In this document: positions 191 to 58,661 of the stretch, in pieces
Position numbering within the stretch: the first letter of the stretch is position 1
Layout: each line of letters opens with the position of its first letter
Source of the DNA: Malacoraja senta
Lineage: Eukaryota
Direction of reading: 5' to 3'
DNA length: 64,000 nucleotides
Assembly: GCA_038087875.1 (NCBI GenBank)
Contig: CM075994.1
Coordinates: 10,728,001-10,792,000 of the forward strand
Notes under the pieces: generated by a model
What the model saw: the letters and a program-made list of their open reading frames with translations, nothing else
Database searches by the model: none
What the model was told of the DNA's origin: nothing
Program-made: the position numbers and the translations under genes

Positions 191-1876
191 CTTCAGAAAT
201 AACACGCCGTCCTTGTGGTCTGTCTGTTCTTGTAGCTTTGAGAGTTCCTCATGAATGGAATTTATATACTCTTGAATCTCTTGAAGATTTTTCTCCATTG
301 TTTTTACAATCAACGCCTCTTCTTCCCGGATATCTCCGAGTACGCGCCGCTCTTTCTCGGTGAGAATCTGGTGCAGTTCAGCAAACTGGGATGTGGTCTG
401 TGACTGAAGGTTGCGTGACGCTTCCTGTCAGATGAAAGATGAGAATCAATATATTGTGTCACTCTGCTCTGTTTCCTCCTGACGGGGAAGGTGACATTTG
501 GCTAATCAATGTCGAGTCCTGGAGTGCAGAAATATGCCATTCTGCCCAACAAGCCCGCGCTGGGCTCTGTACGTATCTACATTAATTCCATTTGCATGTA
601 TTCAATCCGTAGTTTTCACTACCGTGGCTAATCAAGAGCTCGTCTTGATAATTCTGAAATACTTGGTGAAAGTAATGTACAAGCAAGTCATTCCCATTTC
701 CCAAGTACAATTCCCTGCAACTTATTCCATTTTGTGTGTCGATTAACCCTCAGTGAACAGAACCAGGTCACCAGAACTAGCAGACAGCAGCACCACTTAG
801 AATGACAGACTTCATAGAGTCATACAGCAAGGGGTGTTAGATACCGACCAAGACGCCCCAACTGCGCTTTATCCACCTGTCCGCATTTGGCCCACCTGGT
901 TCTAAAATGTTCTCTCCACGAACTTGTTCAAATATCTTTTAAATATTGTTATGGTTCGTGAATCAACTACCTCCCCTGGCAGCGCGTTCCATATGCCCAC
1001 TACCAAAGTTGCCCTCTCACCTTAAACCTATGCCCTCGCATGTTGGACGTCCTACATAGTGTAAAAGACTGCGAATTCACCCTAACATTTCGTTTCATGA
1101 TATAATACACCTGCAATAGATCAGACTCCTGCGCTCCAGTGAGTAAAGTCCTTGGCTGCCCAAACGCCACCTAGATCTCGGCCCCTCGACTACTGAGCTC
1201 TATAGAGGTGCCCACTTATTACACGCGACACAGGGATCAAATTTACACAAAAACATTAAATCGATAGTACAAAGTCTCACCTGAACTCCAGAAATGCTCT
1301 CTTTCTGTTTCTGCTCCATTTGCTCGATCTCTGATTTACTTTCTGTGAGAGAGTTGAAAGAAGATTTCACCTGTTCCTGCGGTTCGATTTCAGACGGAGA
1401 ATAAAAATGTCAGACAATAAAGAAAAGATTACACATTTATGCAATCAAAATCGATTTGGTTTTACCTTGTAGAATTCAATTGCTTCTTCTATCATCATTA
1501 AGCTGTGAGACTTGTGTTCCCGCTCAGTGGCGCAAATCACACAGATCAGTTTCTTGTCCGTTTCACAAAACAGCTTCAGTTCTTCCTGATGTTTCTCGCA
1601 GTGAAGTTTATTTTCCTTCTCTTTGAGATTCAGGCTCAGTGCTCGAGCTTTCTCAGCCAGTCTAACCAAGGCCCGATTCACCCTGAGGGTGCGGTCTACA
1701 AACTCCTCACTACATTCCGGGCAGGAGTTTCTCGCCTCCCTGTCCCAAGTCTGTGTGATACAGGAGCGGCAGAAGTTGTGCCCACACTCCAGTGACACCG
1801 GATCGGTGAAGAAATCCAGGCAGATGGGACAAACTACCTCCTCGGTTAAACTCTCGACCTGGTCTTTCGAAGCCAT
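191..1876 (-). CDS. TRIM gene A (RING-B-box-coiled coil; TRIM39/A33-like), 5' part only. Exons 1466-1876, 1281-1376, 191-424; the rest lies off-window
   Basis: C3HC4 RING ([21 protein letters not shown]) and B-box2 ([19 protein letters not shown]). GT/AG sites give phase-0 exons of 411, 96 and 234 bp encoding coiled-coil-like sequence. Confidence 0.92.
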
Positions 1877-1907
1877 TCCGCCACTTCCTGGTTCAAAATG
1901 TGTTCAC

Positions 1908-1944
1908 TGACGTGGAGCTGCTCAATATGAGCGCTCACGTGACC
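1908..1944. promoter_or_regulatory. Candidate CRE/UPRE-like (TGACGTGG) and E-box (CACGTG) sites just upstream of the gene A start codon
   Basis: Motif match only; TGACGTG is retained upstream of A, B, C and E. Confidence 0.3.
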
Positions 1945-2206
1945 GTCACGGTGGCGCAGCGGTAAAGTTGCTGCTTTACAGCGAATGCAGCGCCGGAAAA
2001 CTGAGTTCGATCCTGACTTGGGGTGCTGTCTGTACGGAGTTTGTACGTTCTCTCATGACCTGCATGGGATTTCTCCGCGATCATCTGTTTCCTCACACAC
2101 TCCAAGGCTTGGGAAATGTAGTGTTAATGGCCGGGGATCGCTGGTCGGCGAGGACCTGGTGGGCCGAAGGGCCTGTTTGCGCGCTGTATCTCTAAACTAC
2201 ATTAAA
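1945..2206 (+). mobile_element. HE1/V-SINE-like tRNA-derived SINE, head-to-head with gene A
   Basis: A box (gtggcgcagcgg), B box (gagttcgatcc), central body gagtttgtacgttctc, CR1-type tail gggccgaagggcctgttt..ctgtatctctaaa. Confidence 0.8.
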
Positions 2207-4725: not shown

Positions 4726-5039
4726 GGTGACATTTTGGAGAGTGAATCTATTTATCTGGGATGGAATTGGGCCAATGGGCGGATTAATGGCTGATTTATT
4801 TAACTCGGATAAGTGTGATGCAAGTTGGTGTAACAGGCCAGGGCAGATTATACACATTAAACAGTTACGCCCTGTGTTATTTTTAGCAGATTAGAGAGAT
4901 ATTGGAATTCAAACATACAGCTCCATGAACATTGCACCAGGGATGGGCAGGGTGGTGACGAAGGCGTTTGGCACATTTGCTGGGTCCGTGAGGGTATGAA
5001 ATACAGGATTTGATACAACTGTACAAGACAACTGTAAGA

Positions 5040-5320: not shown

Positions 5321-5329
5321 ACTACATTG

Positions 5330-6945: not shown

Positions 6946-8127
6946 TAGAAAGATTGTGTTTATTTGCATTATGTGCTTGGTGCTTCTAATACTCCAATTG
7001 AAATAAACCCAAATCGCTTTGGACAGTATAGCTTGTTTTTAAACTCTGTCTGTGAATGTTCCTGTCTGCAAACAGACTCCTGCTTTTCAGTTGCCATTCC
7101 TGGCTGCACTTCAAAGAGAATTCCACCAGTAAAGCACTTTGGGGTCTCCTAGAAGAGATGCGAGGACATTGTGTAAATGTAAGCGGGATGTTGCTGTCGG
7201 CACTCGATCTTGGAGGGAATAATCCATTTCCGATGCCCAAACAGGGGTCGTGGATAGACGAAGTAGCCGCTGGCGTCCGCGGGCTTGGAATGGACTTTGG
7301 TCACTCGCGTTTTCTCGAGACGGCGAGAAAGCGAAGGGAAGAGTCGGGGCTCGAGTAGAGGAAAGTGGGAGCAGGTTGGAGACTGGCAGTGAGGGAGATG
7401 AAGCGTCAAAGCGGTGACCGAGAGCAGGAAACAGCACCGAGACAGGCATGATGTACCCAAGAGAGAAGTGAGGGAGGGGTCTCTCAGCGACAGAAACAGG
7501 GAATGATCTACGTATCCTACAGAGAGACAGGCAGAGCCTGAGCACAACGGGCTTCCACTTGGAACCGGGAATTCGGTTTGAACCCATTCTTCCAAAGATC
7601 CGGGCATTGAATGCTATTTTACTGCAAGTGTTCAGTGCGAAGCTTTCCTGGCCGCTTCCAACTCATCTCACACGAGGGAGGGGCATGATTGCATAAAATT
7701 GCACTGGCCTGAATATGGACGAGAAAGACTAAGGCAGGACAGAAAGGGACGGGGCCCGGCGTTAAAGAAGCCTCGGGTGGAACCTGAGGAGGCGTTGCAG
7801 CTGTTGGGCAGTGGAACCCGCCGCCCGCATCTCCGTTCACAGCCCGGGATCAGGATGGACGGAGACCTCCCTCCGCCCTTAATTTATTCCACAAACGTGC
7901 ACCTGTCTCTCATGCAGCAGTCTTCGGGGCAATCTATGTTTGCGTTTATTTTTTAAACGATATTATATGACCATCTAAAATTCATTCCAGTTTGCAAAGG
8001 TTTACTTTGTCTGTCTGAAGAAGGGTCTCGACCCGAAACGTCGCCCCGAAAATTCTATCCATAGATGCTGCCTCACCCAATGAGTATCTCCAGCAGTTTT
8101 ATCGACCAGATTCTTTGTCTGCTGATC

Positions 8128-8431
8128 AGTTTAGTTTAGTTTAGTGTAGAGATAGTTTTGAAATCAGGCCACTCAGTCCACCGAGTCTGCACCAACCAGC
8201 GATCCCCACAAATTAAAACTATCCTGCACACGCTAGGGACAAATTTACACATCAAGCCAATTAACCTACATACCTGTACGCCTCTGGAGTGTGGGAGGAA
8301 ACCGAAGATCTCGGAGAAAACCCACGCGGTCACGGGGTTGAACGTACAGACAGCACCCGTAATCGGGATCGAACCCGGGTCTCTGGCGCTGCAAGCGCTG
8401 CAAGGCAGCAACTGTACCGCTGCGCACCGTG
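8128..8431 (-). mobile_element. HE1/V-SINE-like SINE
   Basis: Reverse strand has a tRNA head (ccgggttcgatccc), the SINE body and a (ctaaa)n tail. Confidence 0.8.
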
Positions 8432-9964
8432 GAATCAGTGAGTGTGGAACACGGAACACTCAGATTCGAAAGCCCAATTGGCAGCATTTCCTCCCCCCCT
8501 GTAGGTCATTCTTGCCGCTAATGCTTCCGAGATGGCGCCTAACCAAGGCGTCTATTTGCGTGCGATGCAGATCTACAATCACATATTACAATCGCCCCAC
8601 ACTCTTAAATCTCTACTCCCACCTCAACATTTCTCACTTTAACTATGATCGGACTTTGCTGGTTTAACCTTGCACTAAACGTTATTCCATCATCGAGTAT
8701 CTGTACACTGCAAGAGGCTCGATTATAATAATGTATCGTCTTTCTGCTGCCTGGATAGCACGCAACAAAAGTATTTCACTGTACTTCGAAACACGTGACA
8801 ATAAACTAAACTGAAAAACCTTATTCTCCTTAGATAGGCACAAAATGCTGGAGACCGTCTCGACCCGAAACGTCATCCATTCCTTGTCTCAAGATATGCT
8901 GCCTGTCCCGCTGAGTTACTCCAGCATATTGTGTCTATCTTCGGTTTAAACAAGCATCTGCAATTCTGCCTACACGCCGAGCCATTTTCCCCTTGTTGCT
9001 TCTCTATCTCAATTCTGTGCCTATTTGATCCTCGCACAGATGGAAAGACGCCCCCCCCCCCCGCTCCCATTCCCCGTCTCCACACCGGATCCGAGCTTGA
9101 ACCCTCTGTGAAAGCTTTCAAATTTCCTTCTCCACAGAGAACCTGCACCCGCTTCTCCGGCCTCGACCTCGACCCGAATCTCCTCATCCTTGAAACCATT
9201 CCAGTGAATATCTCCTGCGCCCTCCCGGTGATCATCGCTTCATTCATTAAGTTTGGTGACCAGAAATAGGCTTGAAGCACCAGTTGCGTCCAAACCTTTT
9301 ATTTTATACTGATTCAACATAACCTCCTGATGATGTAGGGAGGAACTGCAGAAGCTGGTTTAAATCGAAGACAGTTCCAAAATGCTGGAGTATCTCAGCA
9401 GGGCGGGCAGCATCTCAGGAGAGAAGGAATGGCTTACGTTTCGGGTCCGGACCTTTCTTCGGAATCTTTCACACAATTCTTTCTACATCTCTTTATATCA
9501 CCGTCTATATCTCTCGCTTCCCTTTCCCCTGACTCAGTCTGCAGAAGGGTCTCGTCCCGAAACGTCACCCACTCCTTCTGTCCAGAGATGCTGCCTGTTC
9601 CGCTGAGTTACTCCAGCTTTTTGTGACTATGTCCTGATATTGTACTCTGGGCCTTCATTGATGAGGTTCTGGATTCCCGTTGCCATTACTGGCTGCACTT
9701 CAATGTGATTTACGCAGGTAAAGCACTCTGTGGTCTCCGAAAATAGATGCGTGGACATTGTATAAATGTTAGCGGGTTGTGACGCTGCAATGCTGAGAAC
9801 TATATGCTGCACATTGTAACTGTCCCTTTTCCCTATCTATTGTACTGGAGTTTGACGATTGTAATTAGTGGCAGATGGCTTGCCACAGGGCTCGGTGCTG
9901 GCTCAACTGATGACCATTGTTTTAAATTTAAACGATTTGGATGTGTATGTTGGTGACATGGTTA

Positions 9965-10712
9965 CTTACATAGATACATAGAAAATAGGTGCAGGATTAG
10001 GCCGTTCAATGTGATCATGGCTGATCAACCACAATCAGTACCCCGTTCCTGCCTTTTCCCCATATCCCTTGATTCCTCTTGCCTGACGGGCTCTATCCAA
10101 TGAATCGGACTCCATTGCCATCTGAGGCAGAGAATTCCACAAATTCCCCCAACTCTCAGGGTGAAAAAGTTTGTCCTCATCTCATTTCTAATGGTTAGTC
10201 AGTTTGAGATGAGACTAACATTGGTTAAAACAATTGTCCCTAGTATGTTGGATGGTGTAAGTGAACGTCCGACAGGGCTAATATTCACGGGAATTTAGAA
10301 GGATGAGAGGAGATCTTATGGAAACATATAATTTTTTTTAGAGGATTGGACAGGCTGGATGCAGGAAAAATGTTCCCGATGTTGGGGGAATCCAGAACCA
10401 GGGGGCACAGTGTAAGAATAAGGGGTAGGTCATATAGGACTGAGATGTGGTAGAACCTTTTCACCCGGTGAGTTGTGAATCTTTGGAATTCTCTGCCTAC
10501 GAAGGCAGTTGAGTCCAATTCACTGGGTGTATTCAAGAGAGAGTTAGATATAGCTCTTAGGGATAATGGAATCAAGGGATATGGGGGAGAAGGCAGGAAC
10601 AGGGTACTGATTTTGGATGATCAGCCATGATCAAATTAAATGGCCCTCGCTCGAAGGGCCAAAAGGCCTATTCCTGCACCTATTTTCTATGTTTCCATGT
10701 TTCTACTTTTCA
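9965..10712. mobile_element. Two CR1 3' fragments in opposite orientation (~9965-10190 minus, ~10270-10712 plus); paralogues at ~48845-49682 and ~61405-62172
   Basis: catagaaaataggtgcagg at the left end is the reverse complement of cctgcacctattttctatg at the right end. Confidence 0.78.
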
Positions 10713-12831
10713 ATGGTGACATTTTGGAGAGTGAATCCATTGATATGGAATCGAACATGATTCTCATGAACTGGGCCAATGGGTGGATTAAAGGCTGATT
10801 TATTTAACTCGGTTAAAAATGATGCGTTGGAAAGACATGACAGGGTAGATTATACACATTAAAAAGTTACCCCCTGTGTTATTTTTAGCAGACTAGGGAG
10901 ACATTGGAATGCAGACATACAGCTCCATGAAAATGGCACCAGGGATGGGCAGGGTGGCGACGGAGGCGTTTGACACATTTGCTGGGTCCTTGAGGGTATG
11001 AAATACAGGATTTGATACAACTGTACAAGACACTAGTAAGATCACACCTCCAGATTCAGGGACAGTTTCATCCCAGTTTATATCAGGCAACTGAATCATA
11101 TTTCCACAATCAGACAGCAGTGCTGAACTACTATCTACATTTATGGTGACGCTCGGACTGTACATGAGCGGACTTTGCTGGCTTTACCTTGCACTAAACG
11201 TTATTTCCTTATCATGCATCTATACACTGGAAATGGCTGATTTTCTGCAAATTGGATAGCACGCAACAAGAGCTTTTCACTGTAGCTCGGTACACGTGAC
11301 AATAAACTAAACTGAACAACTGAACTGACTGCATTGATAGTACCTTCCCCCTCACCTCCATCCTGGGATCACAGTCTCCTTCCAAATGAGACAAAGGTTC
11401 ACGGTCACCTCACCCACTGCATCCTGTATTCCTGGTGACGCCTGTTGCGCATTCGTGTGAAAGTCCGACCATTTGGCTGAACACTTGCACTCGGTCAGCC
11501 AAGGGCTGCCGTATGTCAACCATTTTAACTCATCTTCCCATTCCCACGTTGGCCTATCTGTCCGGGGCCTTCTTCGTGGCCAGAGTGAGGCCATACACAA
11601 ACTGGAGGAACAGTGCCTCATATTCCCAACAACATCAATAACAGTAATGTTTTTATGTGCAGCAGGACTGACAGGGTCAGGGCAAATTTCGACCAGAGAC
11701 TCGGAATGTTAACTCATGTCCTCTCTCCGCAGATCCTGCCTGACCAACTGCGGACCCATCCCAAGCCCACTTGACTATCTCAGCTTTGTCCACCCACACA
11801 ACAGAAGTCTGGGCTCAGTCAAAAACGCCTGAGTCAGAGATTGTGCAGCCCACTTTGTTGGGATTTGGGAATGCTGATTACAAATCTGGAAGATTACGGA
11901 CATGGGGGGTGGAATGGCAACATTCCTTGAATGAGCGAAGATTATTTACTAACATTGGAGCCAGGAACAGAAGTGTGTCCCGCAGTTTAAGGAGGGTAAG
12001 TTGTGAGGAGTGATGTAGATGCAAACTCAGATTAAGGACAAGTAAGAATTTCATTACTCTGCCTCGGTACAGATGACAATTAACAACTCATGACAATCTC
12101 TCTTGGGCTGAGGGCGGCGATTAAAGTTTCAGCTGATGGATTGGGTGAAAGAAGGGAAGAAACAGAGGCAGATAATCAGAGAAAAATATGTAAAAGGCGT
12201 TGGTTCATTGAAATCAAACCCACTTACAATATTGTAGGTCAGTAGATTAATACAACAGATACATTTAATACCCTGTTGTTGCAGTTGGATAATTCGCACG
12301 ACCAGTAACATTCATAAGAACCGAATAGAAAGGTTGTCTTTATTTGAATGATGTGTTTGGTGCTTCTAATACTCCAATTGAAATAAACCAAAATCACTTT
12401 GGACAGCATAGCTTGCTTTTAAACTCTGTGAATGTTCCTGTCTGCAAATTGACTCCTGCATTCCAATTGCCATTCCTGGCTGCACTTCAAAGAGAATTGC
12501 ACCAGTTAACCACTTTGGGGTCTCCTAAAAGAGATGCGAGGACATTGTGTCAATGTAAGCGGGTTGTTGCTGTACGCACTCGATCTTGGATGGAATAACC
12601 CATTTCCGATGCAGAAACAGGGGTAGTGGATAGACGAAGTAGCCGATGGCGTCCGCGGGCTTGGAATGGACATTGGTCACTCGGGTTTTCTCTGAATTGG
12701 AGAAAGAGACGGCGAGAAACAAAGGGAAGAGTCGGGGCTCGACCAGAGCAAAGTGGGAGCTGGTTGGAGACTGGCAGTGAGGGAAATGAAGGGTTAAAGT
12801 GGTGAACGAGAGCAGGAAACAGCACCGATAC

Positions 12832-13949: not shown

Positions 13950-16900
13950 TTACACACCAGGAGCGGAACCGGTGCAGATTGTCAGCCACAGGTTTTCCTC
14001 CCAAGTCCAGAAGAAAGGATAAAGTTTCTCCGTGAATTTATTCCCAGTGAAGGTGTGGAGAAGGGACTTGGTGTCCGCGTCGTAAAGTGAAACTGTCCCG
14101 GACTCATAACTGAGATAAATTCCCACCTTCCCGGGGATGGGACGGGCGGGGAGACGGGATAGAGGGGAGGTATGTGCAACAAACTCGTCACTCTGCCGCC
14201 CGATGCTCCAGACTCCAGTCTCCGTGGACGGTGGATCCTCTCCATTCCTCTCCACAGACTCTGCGGCGACTCCCAGACTCCAGCCACGACACTCCGCCAC
14301 CTCCACCTCCCAGTAGTGTCTCCCCGATGTGAATCCCTCCGATCCCAGCACACACTCCCAGGATCTAAATCTCTTCTCGGTGTCAGGGAGATCCACGCAG
14401 GTCTCGGTACATCTCACCCTCTTCCGATCCTCAGACACCTCAAGCTGCGGACCTGCTGTTTCCGCATCCAGGGTGAGGGAGACTGGGGGGAGAAGCAGAG
14501 AATCAGAGAGTCCCCGGGGGTCTGGGAGAGACTCGGGCGGCGCGGTCCCGGGACCGGGGAGAAGCCGCTCGGCCTCAGACACTGTCGGTCTGATAACTGA
14601 ATCCTTGCTCGAGGTTTCACCCACAACAACATCAAAATAGATAACAGACATCTTTCCCGGAGTGTCCCAACCGGCCAGGTAAGGGGAAATTCGCGGGTTA
14701 TCTGGAATGGGCGGGAGCTGGTGGACGAGGAAAACGAATGCGAAAAGTGAGGATAAACGAGAGATTGCGGGAGGGGATGGAGAAATAAGGCGGATATTTA
14801 AATATCTTAATATAGAAATATAGAAAATAGGTGCAGGAGTAGGCCATTGGGCCCTTCGAGCCTGCACCGCCATTCAATATGATCATGGCTGATCATTCAA
14901 CAATATCCTGTTCCTGCCTTCTCTCCATACCCCCTGATCCCTTTAGCCACAAGGGCCACATCTAACTCCCTCTTAAATATAGCCAATGAACTGGCCTCAA
15001 CTACCTTCTGTGGCAGAGAATTCCACAGATTCACCACTCTCTGTGAAAATGTTTTTCTCATCACGGTCCTAAAAGACTTCCCCCTTTTCTTCAAACTGTG
15101 ACCCCTTGTTCTGGACTTTCCCAACATCGGGAACAATCTTCCTGCATCTAGCCTGTCCAACCCCTTAAGAATTTTGTACGTTTCTATAAGATCCCCCCTC
15201 AATCTTCTAAATTCTAGCGAGTACAAGCCGAGTCTATCCAGTCTTTCTTCATATGAAAGTCCTGCCACCCCAGGAATCAGTCTGGTGAACCTTCTCTGTA
15301 CTCCCTCTCTGGCAAGAATGTCTTTCCTCAGATTAGGAGACCAAACTGTACACAATACTCCAGGTGTTGTTTCGCCAAGGCCCTGTACAACTGCAGTAGA
15401 ATCTCCTTGCTCCTATACTCAAATCCTTTTGCTATGAATGCTAACATACCATTCGCTTTATTCACTGCCTGCTGCACCTGCATGCCTACTTTCAATGAAT
15501 GGTGTACCATGACACCCAGGTCTCGTTGCATTTCCCCTTTTCCGAATCGGCCACCATTTAGATAATAGTCTACTTTCCTGTTCTTGCCACCAAAGTGGAT
15601 AACCTCACATCTATTCACATTATATTGCATCTGCCATGCATTTGCCAACTCACCCAACCTATCCAAGTCACCTTGCAGTCTCCTAGCATCCTTCTCAAGC
15701 TAATACTGCCCCCTAGCTTTGTGTCATCCGCAAACTTGGAGATGTTGCATTCAATTCCCTCGTCCAAATCATTAATATATATTGTAAATAGCTGGGGTCC
15801 CAACACTGAGCCTTGCGGTACCCCACTAGTCACTGCCTGCCATTCTGAAAAGTACCCGTTTACTCCTATTCTTTGCTTCCTGTCTGCCAGCCAGTTCTCT
15901 ATCCACATCAATACTGAACCCCCAATACCATGTGCTTTAAGTGTGCATATTAATCTCTTATGTGGGACCTTGTCAAAAGCCTTCTGAAAGTCCAGATATC
16001 ACACATCCACTGGTTCTCCCTTATCCACTCTACTAGTTACATCCTCGAAAAATACTATAAGATTCGTCAGACATGATTTACCTTTCATAATTCCATGCTG
16101 ACTTTGTCCAATGATCTCACCACTTTCCAAATGTGCTGCTATCCCATCTTTAATAACTGACTCTAGCAATTTCCCCCACTACCGATGTTAGACTAATGGG
16201 TCTGTAATTCCCCGTTTTCTCTCTCCCTCCTTTTTAAAAAGTGGGGTTACATTAGCTACCCTCCAATCCTCAGGTACTACTCCAGAATCTAAAGAGTTTG
16301 GAAAAATTATCAATAATGCATCCACTATTTCTGCGGCTACCTCCTTAAGTACTCTGGGATACAGCCTATCTGGCCCTGGGGATTTATCAGCCTTTAATCC
16401 ATTCAATTTACCTAACACCACTTCCCGACTAACCTGGATTTCACTCAGTTCCTCCATATCATTTGACCCCCGGTCCCCTGCTATTTCCGGCAGATTATTT
16501 ATGTCTTCCTTAGTGAAGACAGAACCAAAGTAGTTATTCAATTGGTCTGCCACATGATCAATTCACCTGTTTCCGACTGCAAGGGACCTACATTTGTTTT
16601 AACTAATCTTTTACTCTTCACATATCTATAAAAACTTTTGCAGTCAGTTTTTATTTTATCTGCCAGTTTTTATGTTATCTGCCAGTTTTCTTTCATAATC
16701 TATTTTCCCTTTCCTAATTAAGCCCATTGTCCTCCTCTGCTGGACTCTAAATTTCTCCCAGTCCTCTGGTAGGCTGCTTTTTCTGGCTAATTCGTATTCT
16801 TCATCTTTTGTTTTTATAGTATCCCTGATTTCCCTTGTTATCCACGGATGCACTACCTTCCCTGATTTATTCTTTTGCCAAACTGGGATGAACAATTGTT

Positions 16901-40800: not shown

Positions 40801-43800
40801 ATGAAATAGTGGCACATTTGGATAGCAGTAACAGGATCGGTCCGAGTCAGCATGGACTTACGAAGGGGAAATCATGCTTGACTAATCTACTGGAATTTTT
40901 TGAGGATGTAACTAGGAAAATGGACAAGGGAGAGCCAGTGGATGTAGTGTACCTGGACTTTCAGAAAGCATTTGATAAGGTCCCACATCGATCAGTAGGC
41001 AAAATTAGGGTACATGGTATTGGGGGTAGAGTGCTGACATGGATAGAAAATTGGCTGGCAGACAGGGATTAACGGGTCCCTTTCAGAATGGCAGGCAGTG
41101 ACTAATGGGGTACCGCAAGGCTCAGTGCTGGGACGGTATCTATTTACAATATACATCAATGATTTAGACGAAGGGATTCAAAGTAACATTAGCAAATTTG
41201 CAGATGACACAAACCTGGGTGGCAGTGTGAACTGTGAGGAGGGTGCTATGAGAATGCAGGGTGACTTGGACAGGTTGAGTGAGTGGGCAGATGCATGGCA
41301 GGTGTAGTTTAATGTGGGTACATGTGAGATTATCTACTTTAGTAGCTAAAACAGGAAGGCAGATTATTATCTAAATGGTGTCAATTTGGGAAAAGGGTAG
41401 TAAAACAGGATCTGGGGTTCCTTGTTCAACAGTCAATGAAAGTAAGCATGCAGGTCCAGCAGGCAGTGAAGAAAGCGAAGTTGGCTTTCATAACAAGAGA
41501 GTTTCAGTATAGGAGCAAAGAGGTCCTTCTACAGTTGCACAGGGCCCTACTGAGACCACACCTGGAGTATTGTGCGCAGTTTTGGACCCTAATTGGAGGA
41601 ACGACTTTCTTCCTATTGAGGGAGTGCAGTGTAGGTTTACAAGGTTAATTCCCAGGATGACGGGACTGCCATATGCTGATAGAATGGAGTGGCTGGGCAT
41701 GTATACACTAGAAGTTAGAAGGATGAGACATATTGAAACATATAAGATGATTAAGGGTTTGGACACGCTATAGGCAGGAAATATGTTCCCGATGTCGGGG
41801 GAGTCCAGAACCAGGGTCCACAGTTTAATAATAATGGTTAAGCCATTTAGAACGGAGATGAGGAAACACTTTTTCACACAGATAGTTGTGAGTCTGCGGA
41901 ATTCTCTGCCTCAGAGGGTGGTGGAGGCTGGTTCTCTGGATACTTTCAAAAGGGAACTAGATAGGGTTCTTAATGATAGCAGAGTCAGGGGGTATGGGGA
42001 GAAGGCTGGAACGGGGTACTGATTGTGGATGATCAGCCATGATCGCATTGATGGTGGTGCTGGCTCGAAGGGCCGAATGGCCTACTCCTGCACCTATTGT
42101 CTCTTGTCTATTGTGTATTGTCTATTGTCCATTGCCCCATCTGCGCTATTTCCACCTGACCCACCTGGTTCTAAACCTTTCTCTCCACGAATTCGTTCAA
42201 ATATATTTTAAATATTGTTATGGTACCTGAATCAACAACCTCCCCTCACAGCTTGTTCCATATGCGCACTACCAAAGTTGCCCTAAACTGTTCCCTCACA
42301 CCTTAAACCTATGCCCTCGCATGCTCGATGCCCTACTTAGTGTAAAAGACTGAGTATTCACCCTGACATTTCGTTTCGTGATATTATACACCTGCAATTA
42401 TCCTCTTAAAATGAAGGCGAGCCGTGGCTCAATGATACCACCAGAGCCCTAAGAAGAGAATGCAGAAAATCAGAACGGTACAAATCTGATAAGCTTAAAA
42501 TTTCCTTTGAACTCCTGAAAAATAATCTTCACAAATACCAGGAAATAGTAAAATCTGCAAGAACTAAATACTTTTCCTCCCTTATCTCCAAAAACGCGCA
42601 AAATTCCAACGTCCTTTTTAGCACCATCACCTCCATAATTTGTCCTGCCACCAGCACCAGCTTAACTGTGTCCCCTGCTAAGTGCGAGGAATTTACCACA
42701 TTTTTCACCAGCAAGGTAAAGAACATAAGAACGAATATTTCCCCTCCCACCCGTGACCTGGCTGTCTCATTGGTCTGCTCTTCAAAATTAGACTGTTTCC
42801 AAACCGTTACTCTACCCTCCCTTCTAAAACTGATCACCACCATGAAACCTACTACCTGCCCCCTCGACACTGTCCCCTCTGCCCTCCTAAAGGATGTCAT
42901 TACAACAGCTGGTCCCAGCATCCTCGCCATCTTCAACAGCTCTCTGGCCACTGGCACTGTACCTACCTGCTTCAAGCATGAGGTGGTCCAACCACTCCTG
43001 AAAAAAACCTAACCTCGACCCCACCTTGCCAAGCAAATACAGACCCATTTCTAAACTGCCTTAACTCTCAAAAGCCCTTGAAAAGGTAATGTTAAGTCAA
43101 CTTATGCCTTACCTTCACCAAAACACTATTTTGGAAACTTTCCAATCAGGTTTTAGGGCTCACCATAGCACAGAGTCTGCCTTGTTGAAGGTACATAACG
43201 ACCTACTGCTCACCGTTGACTCCGGCGACTGTGCAATCCTGATCCTTCTTGACCTCAGCGCAGCATTTCATACTGTCGACCACACCATCCTAATTGACTG
43301 TCGCCGTTATGGAGTTGGTATTGATGGCATTGCCCTGAGCTGGTTCATCTCCTACCTCAAAGGTAGGAGTTTCTTGACTAACATAGGCAACTCTTTCTCC
43401 TCCCCAGCTAATCTCTGCTGTGGGGTTCCACAAGGTTCCATCCTTGGCCCCATTCTGTTCTCCCTGTATATGCTCCCCTTAGGCCAAGTCATTGAAAGGC
43501 ACGGCATTTCCTTCCATTGCTACGCAGACGATACACAAATCTATCTCCCCCTGAAGCCCAAAAACCAATCAAATCTGCTTAAACTTACCCGCTGCCTCGA
43601 GGATATAAAGTGTTGGATGGCCCAGAACTTCCTCCAACTAAACGAGAGTAAGTCTGAGGTCATCCTTCTCGGCCCCTCGGACTCAATCAAAATGATAGCA
43701 GGCAGCCTTGGAAGCCTTACCCCACTACTCAAACCTCACGTCAAAAACCTTGGCGTGATATTTCACTCGGCACTGAGATTTGACAAACAAGTCAATGCCG

Positions 43801-46800
43801 TGATAAAAGCTAGCTTCTTTCAGCTTCGGACGATAGCTAAAATCAAAAACAATTCCTCCAGTTTGATGACCTCGAAAAGATCATCCACACATTCATCCCC
43901 TCCCGCCTAGATTACTGCAACTCCCTTTACACTGGCATCAGCCAATCTTCCCTGTCCCGCCTGCAACTGGTTCAAAACGCCGCAACGAGACTCCTGACGG
44001 GCACCCGAATAAGGGACCACATCACCCCTATCCTGGCCTCTCTCCACTGGCTCCCTGTGCGGTTCCGTATGAACTTCAAGATCCTCCTCCATGTCTACAA
44101 AGCCCTCAATGGGCTTGCCCCCACCTACATAAAAAGTCTTCTCACCCACCACTCCACCTCCAGGCCCCTCAGATCGGCCGACTTGGGGTTGCTGAATATC
44201 CCACGGTCTAGGCATAAGCTCAGGGGCGACCGCGCCTTTGCGGTAGCAGCCCCTAGACTGTGGAACAGCATCCCCTTTCCCATCAGAACTGTCCCCTCCA
44301 TCGACTCTTTTAAGTCAAGACTAAAAACGTATCTATACTCCCAAGCTTTTCCTGACGTCCTCTGAGTGAGGGCTACATGTATATATGTATATAGTTTGTT
44401 TTGTTTATGCTATTCTTATAACAAATGTAAAGCAATTTGGCCAACGAGAGTTGTTTTTTAAATGTGCTATATAAATAAATGTGACTTGACTTGACTTGCA
44501 ATAGATCATTCTTCAGACACCTGCACTCCAGGGAGTAAAGTCCAGTCACTGTACACCTCCATCCCCCACCAGGATGGTCTCAAAGCCCTCCGTTTTTTCC
44601 TCGACCGTAGAAGCAATCTATACCCGGCCACTGACACCCTCCTCCGCCTAGCGGAGCTGGTACTTACACTTAATAACTTTTCATTTGACTCCTCCCATTT
44701 CCTCCAAATACAAGGCGTAGCTATGGGCACACGCATGGGCCCCAGCTACGCGTGCCTCTTTGTCGGGTACGTAGAACAATCCTTGTTCAATGCGTACCAG
44801 GGCCCCATCCCCGACCTCTACCTCCGCTACATCGATGATTGTTTTGGTGCCACATCCTGCACCCACACACAACTGACTGACTTCATCCGCTTCACCACCA
44901 ACTTCCATCCGGCACTCAAATACACCTGGACCATTTCCGACACTTCCCTACCATTCCTTGACCTCACTATCTCCATCGCAGGTGATAGACTCCTTACCGA
45001 CATCCACTACAAACCTACTGACTCCCATGGCTATCTGGACTACACTTCTTCCCACCCTGCTTCCTGTAAGGACTCCATCCCCCACTCCCAATTCCTCCGT
45101 CTACGCCGCATCTGCTCCCAAGATGAGGCGTTCCACACCAGGGCATCTGAAATGTCCTCATTCTTCAGGGAACGGGGGTTCCCCTCCTCCACCATAGATG
45201 AGGCTCGCACCAGGGTCTCTGCCATACCCCGCAACACTGCTCTCTCTCCCCATCCCCCCACTCACAACAAAGGCAGAGTCCCCCTAGTCCTCACCTTTCA
45301 CCCCACCAGCCGTCACATACAACAAGTGATCCTCCGTCAGTTTCGCCACCTCCAACGTGACCCCACCACTCGCCACATCTTCCCATCTCCCCCTATGTCT
45401 GCCTTCTGCAAAGACCGCTCCCTCCGTAACTCCCTTGTCAATTCTTCCCTTCCCTCCCATACCACCCCCTCCCCTGGTACTTTCCCTTGCAACCGCAAGA
45501 GATGCAACACTTGTCCCTTCACTTCCCCCCTCCACTCCATTCAAGGACCCAAGCAGTCGTTCCAGGTGCGACAGAGGTTCACCTGCATCTCCTCCAACCT
45601 CATCTATTGCATTCGCTGCTCTAGATGCCAGCTGATCTACATCGGTGAGACCAAGCGGAGGCTTGGCGATCGTTTCGCCGAACACCTCCGGTCAGTCCGC
45701 AATAACCAACCTGAACTCCCGGTGGCTCAGCACTTCAACTCCCCCTCCCATTCCGTATCTGACCTCTCTGTCCTGGGTCTCCTCCATGGCCACAGCGAGC
45801 AACACCGTAAATTGGAGGTAATGCACCTCATATTCCGCTTGGGCAGTCTACATCCTGGTGGCCTGAACGTTGAATTCTCCCAATTCTGCTAGCCCTGGCT
45901 GTCCCCTCCCCTTCATCAGCCATCTGGTCGTCTCCTCCCCTCCCCCAGCCCTCGGGCTCCTCCTCCGCCTTTTCCTTTTTTCCTTTCTTCTCCCCACCCC
46001 CTATCAGTCTGAAGAAGGGTTTCGGCCCGAAACGTAACCTATTTCCTTCGCTCCATAGATGCTGCTGCACCCGCTGAGTTTCTCCAGCATTTTTGTGTAC
46101 CTTCGATTTTCCAGCATCTGCAGTTCCTTCTTTTACACAAAGTCCTTGGCTGCCCAACCGCTCCGAAGATCTCGGGTCCTCGACTACTGAGCTCTATAGA
46201 GGTGTCCATTATTACACGCATCACAGGGATCAAATCTACTCAAAATAATTCAATCGATAGTACAAAGCCTCACCTGAACTCCAGAAATGCTCTCTTTCTG
46301 TTCCTGCTCCATTTGCTCGATCTCTGATTTCCTTTCTGTGAGCGATTCGAAAGAAGATTTCGCCTGTTCCTGGGGTTGGATTTCAGATCAGAGAATAAAA
46401 ATGTTAGACAAAAAAGAAAATATTAAACAATGAAATGTTGAAAATTGATTTGGTTTTACCTTGTAGAATACAATTGCTTCATCTACCGGCATTAAGCTGT
46501 GAGTCTTGTGTTCCCGCCCAGCTGCACAAATCACACAGATCAGTTTCCTGTCCGTTTCACAAAACAGCTTCAGTTCTTCCTGATGTTTCTCGCAGTGATG
46601 TTTACTTTTCTTCTCTTTGAGATTCAGGCTCAGTGCTCGCGCTTTCTCAGCCAGTCTAACCAAGGCCCGATTCACCCTGAAGGTGCGGTCTACAAACTCC
46701 TCTCTACATTCAGGGCAGGAGTTTCTCCCCTCCCTGTCCCAACTCTGTGTGATGCAGGAGCGGCAGAAGTTGTGTCCGCACTCCAGTGTCACCGGATCGG

Positions 46801-46870
46801 TGAAGAAATCCAAGCACGTGGGACAAACTGCCTCCTCGGTTAAACTCTCCACCTGGTCTTTCGAAGCCAT
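34878..46870 (-). CDS. TRIM gene D, apparently intact (~476 aa). Exons 46460-46870, 46274-46369, 39443-39676, 37715-37737, 37486(or 37504)-37622, 34878-35407
   Basis: RING/B-box exon, 96 and 234 bp coiled-coil exons, 23 bp mini-exon, exon 5 and PRY/SPRY exon join in frame. Intron 2 is expanded by three retroelements. Confidence 0.88.
36345..37262 (-). mobile_element. Degenerate Penelope element in intron 5 of gene D, interrupted by a CR1 3'-end fragment (~36880-36985)
   Basis: Reverse strand encodes RRLGDRFAEHLRS..VAKHFNS..LEEQQLIF; terminal repeat at ~36345-36430; embedded aggccattcggcccttcgag CR1 tail. Confidence 0.75.
37820..38460. mobile_element. Penelope-derived remnants (GIY-YIG fragment and terminal repeats) in intron 3 of gene D
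   Basis: tacatcgttgagaccaagcg, cagcacctcatattccg and ctgaagaagggtcccgacccgaaa motifs. Confidence 0.65.
39934..42133 (+). mobile_element. 5'-truncated CR1 LINE in intron 2 of gene D
   Basis: RT fragments ([25 protein letters not shown]) and a (ctattgt)n tail. Flanks ccgaccaagac|gccccatctg are contiguous in gene C. Confidence 0.92.
42399..44496 (+). mobile_element. 5'-truncated L2-clade LINE in intron 2 of gene D
   Basis: QSGFRAHHSTESAL, LDLSAAF, GVPQGSILGP, YADDTQIY, GDRAFAVAAPRLWNS; (tgact)n tail; TSD tgcaat at 42393-42398 and 44497-44502. Confidence 0.92.
44544..46138 (+). mobile_element. Penelope-like element (RT C-terminal half, Cys linker, GIY-YIG endonuclease; Neptune-like) with a 3' hammerhead-bearing terminal repeat
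   Basis: Open ORF 44723-45892 with AMG, RYIDD, CNRKRCNTC and NLIYCIRCSRC..YIGET..RFAEH; TSD aaagtcc at 44537-44543 and 46139-46145. Confidence 0.92.
46009..46036 (+). ncRNA. Putative minimal type I hammerhead ribozyme motif in the Penelope terminal repeat
   Basis: CUGAAGA-A-GGGU(UUCG)GCCC-GAAA-C-GUA: conserved core, stem II and a palindromic ACGU stem III. Confidence 0.6.
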
Positions 46871-46950
46871 TTTAAATCCGCCAGAAACCCTTCCTAGTTC
46901 AAAATGTTTTCACTGGCGTGGAGCTGCTGAATATGGAAGGTCACGTGACC

Positions 46951-52058: not shown

Positions 52059-55000
52059 TTACACACCCGGAGCGGAACCGGAGCAGATTCTCAGCCACAG
52101 GTTTTCCTCCCAAGCCCAGAAGAAGGGATAAAGTTTCTCCGTGAATTGATTCCCAGTGATGGTGTGGAGAAGGGACTTGGTGTCCGCGTCGTAAAATGAA
52201 ACTGTCCCGGACTCGTAACTGAGATAAATTCCCACCTTCCCGGGGATGGGATGGGCAGGGAGACGGGATAGAGGGGAGGTATGTGCAACAAGCTCGTCAC
52301 CCTGCCGCCCGATGCTCCAGACTCCAGTCTCCGTGGACGGCGGTTCCTCTCCATTCCTCTCCACAGACTCTGCGGCGACTCCCAGACTCCAGCCACGACA
52401 CTCCGCCACCTCCACCTCCCAGTAGTGTCTCCCCGATGTGAATCCCTCCGATCCCAGCACACACTCCCAGGATGAAAATCTCTTCTCGGTGTCAGGGAGA
52501 TTCCTGCAGGTCTCGGTACATCTCACCCTCTTCCGATCCTCAGACACCTCGAGCTGTGGCCCCGCTGTTTCCGCATCCAGGGTGAGGGAGACTGGGGGGA
52601 GAAGCAGAGAATAAGAGAGTCCCCGGGGGTCAGGGGGAGATTCGGGCAGCGCGTCCCCGGGACCGGGGAGAAGCCGCTCGGCCTCAGACACAGTCGGTCT
52701 CATAACTGAATCCTTGCTCGAGGTATCACCCACAACAACATCGGATGGCTAAGAGACATCTTTCCCGGAGTGTCCCAACCGGCCAGGTAAGGGGAAATTA
52801 CGTGGGTTATCGGGAACGGGCGTGGGCGTGCGGACGAGGAAAGCGAATGCGTAAAGTGAGGATAAACGAGAGATTACGGGTGGGGATGGAGAAATAAGGC
52901 GGGTATTTAAATATCTTAATATAGAAGTATAGAAAATAGGTGCAGGAGTAGGCCATTCGGCCCTTCGAGCCTGCACTGCCATTCAATATGATCATGGCTA
53001 ATCATCCAACTCAATATCCTGTACCTGCCTTCTCTCCATACCCCTTGATCCCTTTAGCCACAAGGGCCACATTAACTCCCTCTTAAATTTAGCCAATGAA
53101 CTGGCCTCAACTACCTTCTGTGGCACAGAATTCCGCAGATTCACCACTCTCTGTCTGAAAAATGTTTTTCTCATCTCGGTCCTAAAAGACTTCCCTCTTT
53201 TCTTCAAACTGTGACCCCTTGTCCTGGACTTCCCCAACATCGGGAACAATCTTCCTGCATCTAGCCTGTCCAACCCCTTAAGAATTTTGTAATTTCTATA
53301 AGATCCCCCCTCAATCTTCTAAATTCTAGCGAGTACAAGCCAAGTCTATCCAGTCTTTCTTCATATGAACGTCCTGCCATCCCAGGAAAAAGTCTGGTGA
53401 ACCTTCTTTGCACTCCCTCTATGGCAAGAATATCTTTCCTCAGATTAGGAGACCAAAACTGTACAAATACTCCAGGTGTTGTTTCACCAAGGCCCTGTAC
53501 AACTGCAGTAGAACCTCCCTGTTCCTATACACAAATCCTTTTGCTATGAATGCTAACATACCATTCGCTTTATTCACTGCCTGCTGCACCTGCATGCCTA
53601 CATTCTATGAATGGTGTACCATGACACCCAGGTCTCATTGCATTTCCCATTTTCCTAATCGGCCACCATTCAGATAATAGTCTACTTTCCAGTTCTTGCC
53701 ACCAAAGTGGATAACCTCACATTTATTCACATTATATTGCATCTGCCATGCATTTGCCCACTCACCCAACCTATCCAAGTCACCTTGCAGTCTCCTAGCA
53801 TCCTTCTCGCAGCCAATACTGCCCCCTAGCTTCGCGTCATCCGCAAACTTGGAGGTGTTGCATTCAATTCCCTCGTCCAAATCATTAATATATATTGTAA
53901 ATAGCTGGGGTCCCAACACTGAACCTTGCAGTACCCCACTGCCTGCCATTCTGAAAAGTACCCGTTTACTCCTACACTTTGCTTCCTGTCTGCCAGCCAG
54001 TTCTCTATCCACATCAATACTGAACCCCCAATACCGTGTGCTTTAAGTTTGCATATTAATCTCTTATGTGAGACCTTGTCGAAAGCCTTCTGAAAGTCCA
54101 GATATAACACATCCACTGGTTCTCCCTTATCCACTCTACTAGTTACATCCTCGATAAATACTATAAGATTCGTCAGACATGATTTACCTTTCATAAATCC
54201 ATGCTGACTTTGTCCAATGATTTCACCACTTTCAAAATGTGCTGCTATACCATCTTTAATAACTGACTAGCATTTTCCCCCACTACCGATGTTAGACTAA
54301 CGGGTCTGTAATTCCCCGTTTTCTCTCTCCCTCCTTTATAAAAATTGGGGTTACATTAGCTACCCTCCAATCCTCAGGAACTACTCCAGAATCTAAAGTG
54401 TTTTGAAAAATTATCAATAATGCATCCACTATTTCTGGGGCTACTTCCTTAAGTACTCTGGGATGCAGCCTATCTGGCCCTGGAGATTTATCGGCCTTTA
54501 ATCCATTCAATTTACCTAACACCACTTCCCGACTAACCTGGATTTCACTCAGTTCCTCCATCTCATTTGACCCCCAGTCCCCTGCTATTTCCGGCAGATT
54601 ATTTATGTCTTCCTTCAATTGGTCTGCCATGTCAATTCACCTGTTTCTGACTGCAAGGGACCTACATTTGTTTTAACTATTCGTTTACTCTTCACATATC
54701 TATAAAACTTTTGCAGTCAGTTTATGTTATCTGCCAGTTTTCTTTCATAATCTATTTTCCCTTTCCTAATTAAGCCCACTGTCCTCCTCTGCTGGACTAA
54801 ATTTCTCTGGTAGGCTGCTTTTTCTGGCTAATTTGTATGCTTCATCTTTTGTTTTTATAGTATCCCTGATTTCCCTTGTTATCCACGGATGCACTACCTT
54901 CCCTGATTTATTCTTTTGCCAAACTGGGGTGAACAATTGTTGTAGTTCATCCATGCAGCCTTTAAATGCCTTCCAATGCATATCCACCATCAACCCTTTA

Positions 55001-58000
55001 AGAATCAATTGCCAATTCACGTCTCATACCCTCAAAGTTACCTTTCTTTAAGATGAGAACCCTTGTTTCTGAATTAATTATGTCACTCTCCATCCTAATG
55101 AAGAACACAACCATATTATGGTCACTCTTGCCCAAGGGGCCACGCACAACAAGACTGCTAACTAACCCATCCTCCATACTCAATACCCAATCTAGAATAG
55201 CCTGCTCTCTCGTTGGTTCCTCTACATGTTGGTTTAGAAAACTATCCCGCATACATTCCAAGAAATCCCCTTCCTCAGCACTCCTGCCAATTTGATTCAC
55301 CTAATCTATACGTAGATTGAATTCACCCATAATAACAGTTTTACCTTTGTTGCATGCATTTCTAATTTCCTGTTTGATGCCATCCCCAACACTACTACTG
55401 TTAGGTGGCCTGTACACAACTCCCACTAGCATTTTCTACCCCTTAGTGCTTCGCAGCTCTACCCATATCGATTCCACATCCTTCAAGCTAATGTCCTTCC
55501 TTTCTATTGCGTTAATCTAACCAGCAACGCTACCCCACCTCCTTTTCCTTTCTGTCTATCCCTCCTGAACATTCAATATCCCTGGATGTTCAGCTCCCAG
55601 CCTTGGTCACCCTGGAGCCATGTATCCGTGACCCCAACTATATCATATTCATTAATAAATATCTGCACATTCAACTCATCCACCTTATTACGAATGCTCC
55701 TTGCATTGAGACACAAAGCCTTCAGGCTTGTTTTTACAACACTCTTACCCCTTATACAATTATGTTGTAAAGTGGCCCTTTTTTGATTTTTGCCCTGGAT
55801 TTGTCTGCCTGCCACTTTTACTTTTCACCTTGCTACCTATTGCTTCTACCCTCATTTTACACCCCCTCTGTCTCTCTGCTCATGCTCCCATCCCCCTGCC
55901 ACATTAGTTTGCCAGTAGATGGCGAGGGAGAGGCAGATTAGAAGATGAGGAGACTGGTGTGAGTGGTAATTAGAGGTGGTTAAAGAGGATGCAGAGATGT
56001 GGGGTGGAGTTGCCGTGATCATATTGAACGGGAGTGGATTGGACGCACGAGGCCATCTGCTACTGTTTCCTTACTTTCTTTAGAGGAGGGTGGATTTGAT
56101 GCGTCTGTACAACCAAGAACACTATGATCTCATTGTGAAACAATATGTGAACTTTGCTGGGGGACCAGACAATGTTTTGCATGTAAGGCTGGTCCAGAAA
56201 GTGAAGGCAGGTGGGATCCAAGACGAGTTGAAAAATGGTTCCAAAATTGTCTTGGTGGTTGGAGGTGGAAGGTAGCAGTGGAAGGATGTTCTGCTTGGAG
56301 GTCTGTGACTGGGTGGTGTGCAGCAGAGATCGGTGCTGCAACCTTTGCTGTTTATTTTCTATTTTGCTCCTGAAATAAATAAAACACAAATCTAAATAGA
56401 CTGAGATGGATCATGATGCCGACGGCAGTTATTTCACCAAATTGCTACAAAAACCCTCTGATAATTCCAATTTCCCAACTCTTTGCAGCTCTCCCACACA
56501 GAAAGTGGATATTGTCGTGGAGAAATCGAACACAGGGGGAAGCCTTACTGCGAGTATGCAACTTACGAATCAAACCGGGCAGGTCGTGGGATTTTATCTG
56601 GAGAAGATGCCAGAGATAATAGGATGGAATATTTTAAGGTCAGCGGTGGATTTAAATGGGTGGGGGTTGGAAATATTATTACTACTTGTGGGGAAAAGAA
56701 AGATAAAGCCTGGAATGTATGATGGCCTTTAATAAATTCCACAAAAAATGTAGTAAAGAGAACGTGGAACTCGCAGGGTGGCCTGAAGACAATATTGCAG
56801 ATAAATTTAAGTTGAAGTGGGATAAATACATGAGGATTCCTGGAATTTGGGGCATTTTTGTCGGATGTGGTGAGTAGATGGAACAGATGGAACATTGACC
56901 CAGTACTGAATTACTGGTAAATGCAGCATTTATTTCAGTAATTTAACCCACCATTTTGTGACTGTGCACTTTCACTTCAACAAACTGTAGTGTAACCCCT
57001 CACCTTCAGAAATATCACGCCGTCCTTGTGATCTATCTGTTCCTGTAACTTTGAGAGTTCCTTCTGAATGGAATTTAAATTATTTTGTATCTCTTGAAGA
57101 TTTTCCTCCATTGTTTTTACAATTTCCTTCTCTTCTTCCTGGATATCTCCGAGTAAGCGCTGCTCTTTCTCCACGAGAATCTGGTGCAGTTCAGCAAACT
57201 GGGATGTGACCTGTGACTGAAGGTTGTGTGACTCTTCCTATCAGAGAAAGATAAGATTCAATATATTATGTCACTCTGAGTGCAGGAAAATGCCATTCGG
57301 CCCAACATGTCCATGAGCTTCGTATGCATCTACACTAATCCAATTTACATGTATTTAATTCGTAGCTTTCATTACCGAGGCAATTCAAGAGCTTCTCTCA
57401 ATAATTCTGAAATATTTTGTGAAAGTTATGTACAATCACATAATTCCCATTTCACCAATTCAATTCCCTGCAACCTAAACCATTTTATATGTCCATTAAC
57501 CCTCACAGGACAGAACTAGGTCACCAGAACTAGCAGACAGCAGCACCACTTAGAACAAAAGACTTCATAGAGTCATACAGCAAGGGGTGTTAGATACCGA
57601 CCAAGGCGCCCCATCTGCGCTAATTCCACCTGCCTGCATTTGGCCCAGATAGCTCTAAAACTTTTCTCTCCACGAATCTGTTCAAATACTTTTCAACTGT
57701 TGTTATGGTACCTGACTCAACTACCTCTTCTGGCAGCTCGTTCCATATACCCACTATCAAAGTTGTCCTTCACGTTCTTTTTAAATCTTTTCCCTCTCAC
57801 CTAAAACATATACCCTCATATTCTCGCCCCCCCCCCTACTAAGGGTAAAAGACTGACCATCCAACGTATCATTTCGTTTCATGATATTATGCACCTGCCA
57901 CAGACAATTCTTCAGACTCCTGCGTTCCAGGGAGTAAAGTCTTTGGCTGCTCAACCTCCCCCAAGAGTTCTGGCTCTCGACTACTGTGCTCTATAGAGGT

Positions 58001-58661
58001 GCCAAATTGTTGCACACATCAAAGGGATTAAATCTACACAAGAACATTAAAGCGACAGCACAAACCTGAACGTCAGAAATGCTCCAATTCTGTCCTTGCT
58101 CCAATCCCTCGACGTTTGATTCCGTTTCTGTGAGAGATTTGAAGGTAGATTTCATCTGAGCCTGGGGTTGGGTTTCAGATCAGAGAATAAAAATGTCAGA
58201 AAATGAACACGACATGAAACAATGAAGTGATCAGAATCGGTTTGCTTTTACCTTGTAGTTCGCAACAGCTTCATCTACCGGCATGACGCTGTGAGACTTA
58301 TGTTCCCGCCCAGCTGCACAAGTCACACAGATCAGTTTCTTGTCCGTTTCACAAAACAGCTTCAGTTCTTCCTGATGTTCCTCGCAGTGAGGTTTACTTT
58401 CCTTCGCTTTGAGATTCAGGCTCAGTGCTCGAGCTTTCTCAGCCAGTCTCGCCAAGGCCGATTCACTCTGAAGGTGCGGTCTGTAAACTCCTCTCTACAT
58501 TCCGGGCAGGAGTTTCTCCTCTCGCTGTCCCAACTCCGTGTGATGCAGTAGCGGCAGAAGTTGTGCCCACACTCCAGTGACACCGGATCGGTGAAGAGAT
58601 CCAGGCAGATGGGACAAACTACCTCCTCGGTCCAACTCTCGACCTGGTCTTTCGCAGCCAT
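52059..58661 (-). pseudogene. TRIM gene E (paralogue of B) with a 1-bp frameshift in exon 1 and deletion of exon 5 and most of exon 4. Remaining exons 58252-58661, 58066-58161, 57004-57237, 52059-52591
   Basis: Exon 1 is 410 bp (aaggccgatt vs aaggcccgatt in paralogues, ~58458) and is split into two ORFs. The junction at 56365/56366 joins sequences equivalent to B 18337 and 18786. Confidence 0.85.
52918..55908 (-). mobile_element. CR1 LINE in intron 5 of gene E, a duplicate of the insertion in gene B
   Basis: Same junctions (aaatatctt|aatatag ... acattagt|ttgccag) and nearly the same sequence as 14809-17883. Confidence 0.93.

Follow-up and report, generated by a model that had tools for sequence, protein, structure and literature searches.

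What kind of gene family occupies a stretch of the skate Malacoraja senta genome in which one multidomain gene recurs five times on the same strand, and what has shaped it? The stretch, 64,000 nucleotides from contig CM075994.1 (GCA_038087875.1, positions 10,728,001 to 10,792,000; hereafter the window), was analysed at its full length. By self-comparison and six-frame reading we found five related RING–B-box–coiled-coil–B30.2 genes, A to E, all on the minus strand, in a window that contains no N bases. We consider it probable that these form part of an extensive tandem array of class IV TRIM E3 ligases (of the type annotated 'A33-like/NF7-like/TRIM39-like') with diverging B30.2 ends, likely situated in the major histocompatibility complex (MHC) region. 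Arrays of class IV TRIMs confined to one lineage are familiar, and this one comes as no surprise; what it offers is a clean, testable example from cartilaginous fish. What is new here is an excised unit, a chimeric gene (D), the probable MHC position and a likeness of the B30.2 domains to those of skate butyrophilin models.

The copies follow a common six-exon plan of 411 (426 in B), 96, 234, 23, 119-137 and 530-533 nucleotides. The exon boundaries were taken from the sequence, with AG/GT found at every splice boundary examined, and the array runs from the end of exon 3 of A (191) to the ATG of E (58661):

191..1876, minus strand: TRIM A, exons 1466-1876, 1281-1376 and 191-424, open frame, the remainder lying past the left window edge
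13950..21096, minus strand: TRIM B, intact, 480 amino acids, no internal stops; exons 20671-21096, 20484-20579, 19426-19659, 18767-18789, 18537-18667 and 13950-14482
24660..28743, minus strand: TRIM C, pseudogene with a single TAA at codon 136 (28336-28338); exons 28333-28743, 28148-28243, 27051-27284, 26387-26409, 26170-26288 and 24660-25192
34878..46870, minus strand: TRIM D, intact, 476 amino acids, no internal stops, chimeric; exons 46460-46870, 46274-46369, 39443-39676, 37715-37737, 37486-37622 and 34878-35407
52059..58661, minus strand: TRIM E, pseudogene and sister of B; exons left 58252-58661, 58066-58161, 57004-57237 and 52059-52591

Exon 1 of E measures 410 nucleotides, a 1-nucleotide loss near 58458 having shifted its frame, and a deletion of about 450 bp at 56364/56365 has taken exon 4 for the most part and exon 5 entirely. 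B alone carries a 15-nucleotide tandem duplication (20840-20869) that adds five residues between RING and B-box. The RING (zf-C3HC4) and the B-box (zf-B_box) score above the Pfam cut-off in all four exon-1 open reading frames (ORFs) scanned, those of A-D, the frameshifted exon of E lying outside that scan; the RING of E is legible ahead of its frameshift, and the B-box ligand pattern is intact in the five aligned copies. PRY and SPRY exceed their cut-offs in all four last exons present in the window (B-E). The 96- and 234-nucleotide coiled-coil exons are present in all five copies, and exon 3 of D, the only exon-3 ORF scanned with Pfam, reaches 31.2 bits for TRIM_CC against a cut-off of 30. 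A structural model of the last exon of D (mean predicted local distance difference test score, pLDDT, 91) matches the B30.2 domains of BTN3A1 and TRIM21 in Foldseek with a template modelling (TM) score of about 0.92. A shorter exon 5 of D, ending at a weak GT, was rejected, as the skate proteins P0076 and P0108 have the same six-residue extension. Rfam and ARAGORN returned no matches in the window. We regard the gene structure as modelled as close to certain. An earlier note on this DNA had described five co-oriented class IV TRIM paralogues with one exon plan, two of them intact, two disabled and one cut by the window edge; the joined models with their splice sites, their translations and the Pfam matches to RING, B-box, TRIM_CC and PRY-SPRY bear out each part of that description.

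How did the copies arise? Gene and spacer were copied together. Three long block pairs are duplicated at 93.6-95.2% BLAST identity (1-7602 with 26861-34559, 7600-12540 with 59034-64000, and 13403-22862 with 51500-60454), and the spacers around the genes are thus duplicated as the same note had claimed. Substitutions number 60/2680 and 212/4838 between B and E (2.2-4.4%) and 64/1920 between A and C (3.3%). Such low divergence between a left block (A, the remnant of an excised unit described below, and B) and a right block (C, D and E) raises the question of whether the array is in part falsely duplicated, two divergent haplotypes having been assembled in tandem: the 2.2-4.4% that separates A from C, the remnant from the sequence upstream of E, and B from E is within reach of MHC-linked haplotypes. 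There is, however, no N gap in the window, the type of sequence found upstream of E occurs three times (at 7601, 21479 and 59036), and tens of copies are present in other skates (at least 51 proteins in Rhinoraja and at least 27 in Leucoraja among the best 120 of 1723 matches). Furthermore, exon 6 identity among B, C and D is no higher than 85.5-86.2%, and therefore at least three loci exist under any reading. We judge assembly of two haplotypes in tandem to be very improbable, and retain tandem duplication.

The left block also records a loss. From 1 to 7600 it tracks the upstream spacer of C through to the 3' flank of D, and then switches to a copy of the sequence upstream of E; the match runs up to 34557 and resumes from 59036, with an overlap of 0-1 nucleotide at the junction. 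The elements concerned are:

7600..7601, no strand: deletion junction ('ghost' unit), a D-type 3' flank joined to an E-type upstream spacer
7601..12540, no strand: spacer copy, pairing with 59036-64000 (143 substitutions in 4907 aligned bases)
59036..64000, no strand: spacer lying upstream of E; in four of five cases, spacers of this type run into the 3' end of a further TRIM

Between the matching junction points, the right block holds 24.5 kb containing D and E, and thus at least one whole TRIM gene has been excised at 7600; it could be one or two. This deleted unit was not part of the earlier description. Of the five analogous spacers in the window, the one that does not run into a gene runs into this deletion. 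By alignment, the stop codon of the gene predicted to the right of the window would fall about 0.5-1.4 kb past the edge.

Recombination has also mixed the genes internally. Counting the sites unique to B, C or D along the genes, we observed even numbers in exons 1, 3 and 6, but 39 B-unique versus 10 D-unique sites in exon 2 and the start of intron 2, and 8 B-unique versus 67 D-unique sites from exon 4 to exon 5 (Fisher p 4e-15 for the skew between B and D; 8e-7 in introns alone). Exons 1-3 of D are 81-86% identical to Leucoraja P0062 and only 50-73% to P0076/P0108, whereas its linker is 74-77% identical to P0076/P0108 and 30% to P0062. D thus matches different skate lineages in its two parts and therefore joins two older lineages: on these sequence comparisons it is a chimera, with the breakpoint in intron 3. 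Exon 2 of B (20484-20579) and of E (58066-58161) is a separate matter. It shows 75-76% identity to A, C and D, its peptide reaches 59% with its best match in other skates, and the flanking intron is skewed too, which suggests either an imported block or local fast change.

With two pseudogenes, one excised unit and a LINE (long interspersed element) insertion common to B and E, the tandem birth-and-death evolution proposed from the first reading of the sequence holds up. Unequal crossing-over produced the copies, swapped exon blocks between lineages, as in D, and removed the unit at 7600. Inside 64 kb, turnover has run in four modes: by duplication, by exon-block chimerism, by point decay and by whole-gene excision.

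Are the B30.2 ends diverging under selection? Nei-Gojobori ratios of non-synonymous to synonymous substitution (dN/dS) in B30.2 are 1.36-1.75 in five of the six pairs among B-E, the sixth, B-E, giving 0.54; the mean ratio of the corresponding proportions of differences (pN/pS) is 0.78 in the RING/B-box, 0.77 in the coiled coil and 0.71 in the linker. Hypervariable sites were defined from 75 distinct B30.2 units of other skates. At these 33 sites the 95% interval of mean pN-pS among B, C and D is 0.054-0.394, and at the other B30.2 sites it is -0.047 to 0.054; for the whole B30.2, with transitions weighted twofold, it is 0.009 to 0.116. The variable residues cluster at positions 10-12, 24-30, 40-42, 65-68, 80-84, 92-103 and 158-164 of the domain and map to loops and some strands of the model; they would make up one binding face, as in TRIM21/TRIM5. 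Several points weigh against selection. Without transition weighting, the interval for the whole domain reaches zero (-0.002 to 0.101), with 22 sites chosen more strictly the result is non-significant (-0.028 to 0.377), and the signal comes from three sequences only (B, C and D), of which C is a pseudogene, with recombination present. In addition, the non-hypervariable B30.2 sites are near a dN/dS of 1, and therefore relaxed constraint or gene conversion may contribute. Between A and C there are 21 non-synonymous and 2 synonymous changes, an excess that is non-significant (p 0.11). Taken together, these values are suggestive of positive selection on the variable B30.2 sites, at a borderline level.

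The same observations admit another account, in which the array is real but reflects mostly recombination-driven churn of a non-immune TRIM family (e.g. oocyte, blood-cell or housekeeping), the high dN/dS being due to relaxed constraint and conversion. Values close to 1 for some RING and coiled-coil segments, as well as at the non-hypervariable B30.2 sites, would be expected of such a family, as would the strong mosaicism (chi-square p 1e-18) and the death of two of the four complete copies, and zebrafish bloodthirsty has been linked to erythropoiesis (PMC3137616). Scans of the window likewise found no excess of interferon-stimulated response elements (ISRE). Against this account, the excess amino-acid change sits on sites whose definition came independently, from other skates, while the core hardly varies, and the zinc ligands and E2-binding residues are retained. 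We consider non-immune churn unlikely, and an immune role the better supported reading.

What would such a protein do? Exon 1 aligns to TRIM21 from the start without offset (E 1e-31), and the zinc ligands are retained in the copies. According to PMC6776665, E12, E13 and D21 of TRIM21 give specificity for UBE2N and R55 is the linchpin residue. E12, E13 and D21 are aligned with this UBE2N anchor in all five copies, and the linchpin arginine is retained in B-E; A has a serine at that position (codon 56, 1709-1711), where skate RINGs have arginine in 52 of 56 and serine in 2 of 56, and A may consequently encode a weak ligase. We propose a mechanism drawn from the biology of TRIM21/TRIM5: the intact protein would dimerise via its coiled coil, the variable face of its B30.2 would bind a cytosolic target, clustering would run through B-box and RING, and ubiquitin chains, likely K63-linked with UBE2N, would be built. 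Different paralogues would probably recognise different pathogen-derived or immune-signalling targets. It counts against an immune role that ISRE-like motifs occur in the window at chance level (3 versus 1.97 expected in one scan, 1 versus 1.08 in another), with none upstream of any gene in the window. On balance, we lean towards an immune role of the array.

To which TRIMs are these genes related? The B30.2 of D was searched against longer proteins and the best 120 of 1723 matches were considered; outgroups came from the best 150 of 17579 matches in a search of 50%-cluster representatives, where 30 of 141 proteins without a name were identified by name. Among the 120 matches, 113 are chondrichthyan and 78 are from skates (51 Rhinoraja, 34 of these on one 41.5-Mb sequence, and 27 Leucoraja), and the nearest relatives listed are skate 'A33-like/TRIM39-like' proteins. 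B, C and D are 74-79% identical to skate proteins over their full length (75-77% for B alone). We built a FastTree tree, which kept 29 of 59 skate units (only those covering at least 400 residues), and a second tree of 47 chosen sequences with support from the Shimodaira-Hasegawa-like approximate likelihood ratio test (SH-aLRT); neither tree samples named mammalian or zebrafish TRIMs. Both trees place B, C and D in a skate clade (SH-aLRT 97.8), within a batoid clade (99.8), within a clade that adds sharks and Callorhinchus (98.9; FastTree 0.997). The named members of the latter are all chondrichthyan, with one member (P0126) that has no name, and lungfish, axolotl, coelacanth, gar and sauropsid proteins, including reptile TRIM39, fall outside it. 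The deeper nodes are poorly supported, a point against the overall reading. No one-to-one orthologue occurs among the non-chondrichthyan proteins sampled. A chondrichthyan-specific expansion had been proposed, and the restriction of the clade upholds it in part: judged by these trees, the lineage is an old chondrichthyan one, with Callorhinchus among its members, and what is recent and skate-specific is the expansion of the local copies alone. Many 'uncharacterized' ray and shark proteins of 900-1600 amino acids consist of two or three TRIM units per model (P0003-P0010, P0015-P0025 and similar), and are probably neighbouring array genes fused by automatic annotation.

The arrays annotated in RefSeq as 'zinc-binding protein A33-like/TRIM39-like/nuclear factor 7-like' in Leucoraja erinacea, Rhinoraja longicauda and Pristis pectinata (chr34) share the architecture, the length of about 470 amino acids, the clade and the high copy number per genome; their annotations are automatic, and none of the sequences compared is a one-to-one orthologue of a window gene. 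Our literature search, made on listings and the opening lines of abstracts and with most subscription journals outside its scope, found no paper that takes the TRIM arrays of skates or rays as its subject, and in the whale shark paper neither TRIM nor B30.2 nor butyrophilin occurs as a whole word. An expansion of TRIMs on the MHC chromosome of cartilaginous fish has nevertheless already been published under the label 'TRIM69': the bamboo shark genome paper reports a family enlarged in cartilaginous fish, with an average of about 18 copies, and with 13 copies on the MHC chromosome of the bamboo shark (PMC7677710). The window genes likely belong to this same family. Their similarity to TRIM69 itself is mixed, in a tree that holds no named tetrapod TRIM69: RefSeq names two relatives TRIM69-like, and the best solved-structure match of exon 3 is the TRIM69 coiled coil, though a weak one (E 0.0009), whereas exon 1 scores E 1e-31 with TRIM21 and 9e-15 with TRIM69; orthology to TRIM69 is therefore not supported. 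Viral coiled-coil matches of exon 3 were set aside as low-scoring heptad matches.

The teleost finTRIM, btr and trim35 expansions show clustering, decay and positive selection on B30.2 (PMC2657112 and PMC3137616). The finTRIM (ftr), btr, trim35 and hltr genes resemble the window genes in being clustered and pseudogene-rich and in having 96- and 234-nucleotide coiled-coil exons (same sources). The finTRIMs, however, are described as teleost-specific, with two B-boxes, an exon 1 of 555-594 nucleotides and linker exons of 154/60 nucleotides (PMC2657112), as opposed to one B-box, 411 nucleotides and 23/119-137 nucleotides in the window genes. Membership of the finTRIMs was rejected on these three features. 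Orthology to TRIM39/btr was likewise rejected, as Rhineura TRIM39 joins the sauropsid TRIMs (SH-aLRT 99.5) in a tree that holds neither zebrafish btr nor mammalian TRIM39. TRIM21 is the best solved match of exon 1, with E12/E13/D21 at identical positions, and its B30.2 has the same fold (TM 0.92) at only 37-39% identity to that of D; TRIM21 and TRIM5/TRIM30 are mammalian lineages, from which a ligand in common with the window genes is not inferable. The likelier counterpart is the TRIM cluster of the MHC region, ahead of TRIM5 or finTRIM. In human and chicken, the MHC region contains TRIM-B30.2 clusters (PMC8813856), and those of mammals (TRIM10/15/26/31/39/40) and chicken (TRIM7/27/39/41) have the class IV architecture in common with the window genes. 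Reptile TRIM39 and bird and reptile TRIM7/27/11-like proteins form a clade apart from that of the window genes, which therefore represent a separate expansion and not gene-for-gene orthology.

Does the array lie in the MHC region? The sawfish proteins nearest the window clade in the FastTree tree, among the 120 matches, are LOC127585816 and LOC127585818. The supplement of PMC10751288 places LOC127585816/818/820/821/825 at 3.25-3.63 Mb of sawfish chr34, in a run of A33-like/NF7-like genes that lies between TNF/LTA and TUBB, MDC1, CCHCR1 and TCF19; the same chromosome carries TAP1, PSMB8 and MHC-Ia at about 17.2 Mb and butyrophilin-like genes at 1.4-2.0 Mb. The main text of that paper makes no mention of TRIM or butyrophilin. 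These relatives thus sit in a place comparable to the mammalian and chicken MHC clusters, with butyrophilins nearby. Weighing on the other side, no MHC framework genes are present in the 64-kb window. From the position of the sawfish relatives, we hypothesize that the window array is quite probably in the MHC region. Sawfish gene order and the clade together suggest that the MHC already held a TRIM-B30.2 cluster ahead of the split between sharks and bony fish, with separate expansions thereafter.

Mobile elements account for other features of the window:

14809..17883, minus strand: decayed LINE-like insertion of about 3.1 kb in intron 5 of B, common to E and absent from C
52918..55908, minus strand: the same LINE-like insertion in E, by self-comparison
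40307..45892, no strand: stack of retroelement remnants in intron 2 of D, from self-comparison, ORFs and Pfam
43065-43907, plus strand: reverse-transcriptase fragment (Pfam RVT_1, 5e-28) within the LINE remnant 42410-44365
44495-45892, plus strand: ORF of 465 amino acids, Penelope-like and apparently young, with a weak GIY-YIG match below the cut-off
about 1900-2450, 21120-21700, 28770-29320, 46900-47050 and 58690-59260: stretches before the ATG resembling short interspersed elements (SINE-like)

We presume the insertion in B and E to be CR1-like. Reverse-transcriptase remnants of a second LINE type lie on the plus strand at 42410-44365 and 6333-6770; the sequence at 6306-6943, upstream of A, is present only once in the window and has the look of a private insertion. 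A partial copy (85%) of the element with the 465-residue ORF is present at 12831-13360, in the 3' flank of B. The few hundred bases before each ATG are made largely of short-repeat pieces, and this stretch is about 530 bp shorter in D than in the other copies.

Finally, we observed that the B30.2 domains of the family are not confined to TRIM models. Four skate butyrophilin-like models (P0011, P0013, P0043 and P0092) have six B30.2 units, of which five show 86-92% identity to the B30.2 of a skate TRIM, compared with a median of 84% among skate TRIM B30.2 domains themselves, and these five are nested in the clade of the skate TRIMs. In sharks, too, butyrophilin units lie close to TRIMs, at 70%. 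The likeness may reflect real exon exchange or fusion of gene models. We advance, as a doubtful but possible reading, that skates hold in the MHC region a pool of diversifying B30.2 modules that moves by recombination among TRIM ligases and into membrane butyrophilins. If this is true, TRIM ligases and regulators of gamma-delta T cells would share some of the ligands they sense, in the most ancient lineage that possesses adaptive immunity.

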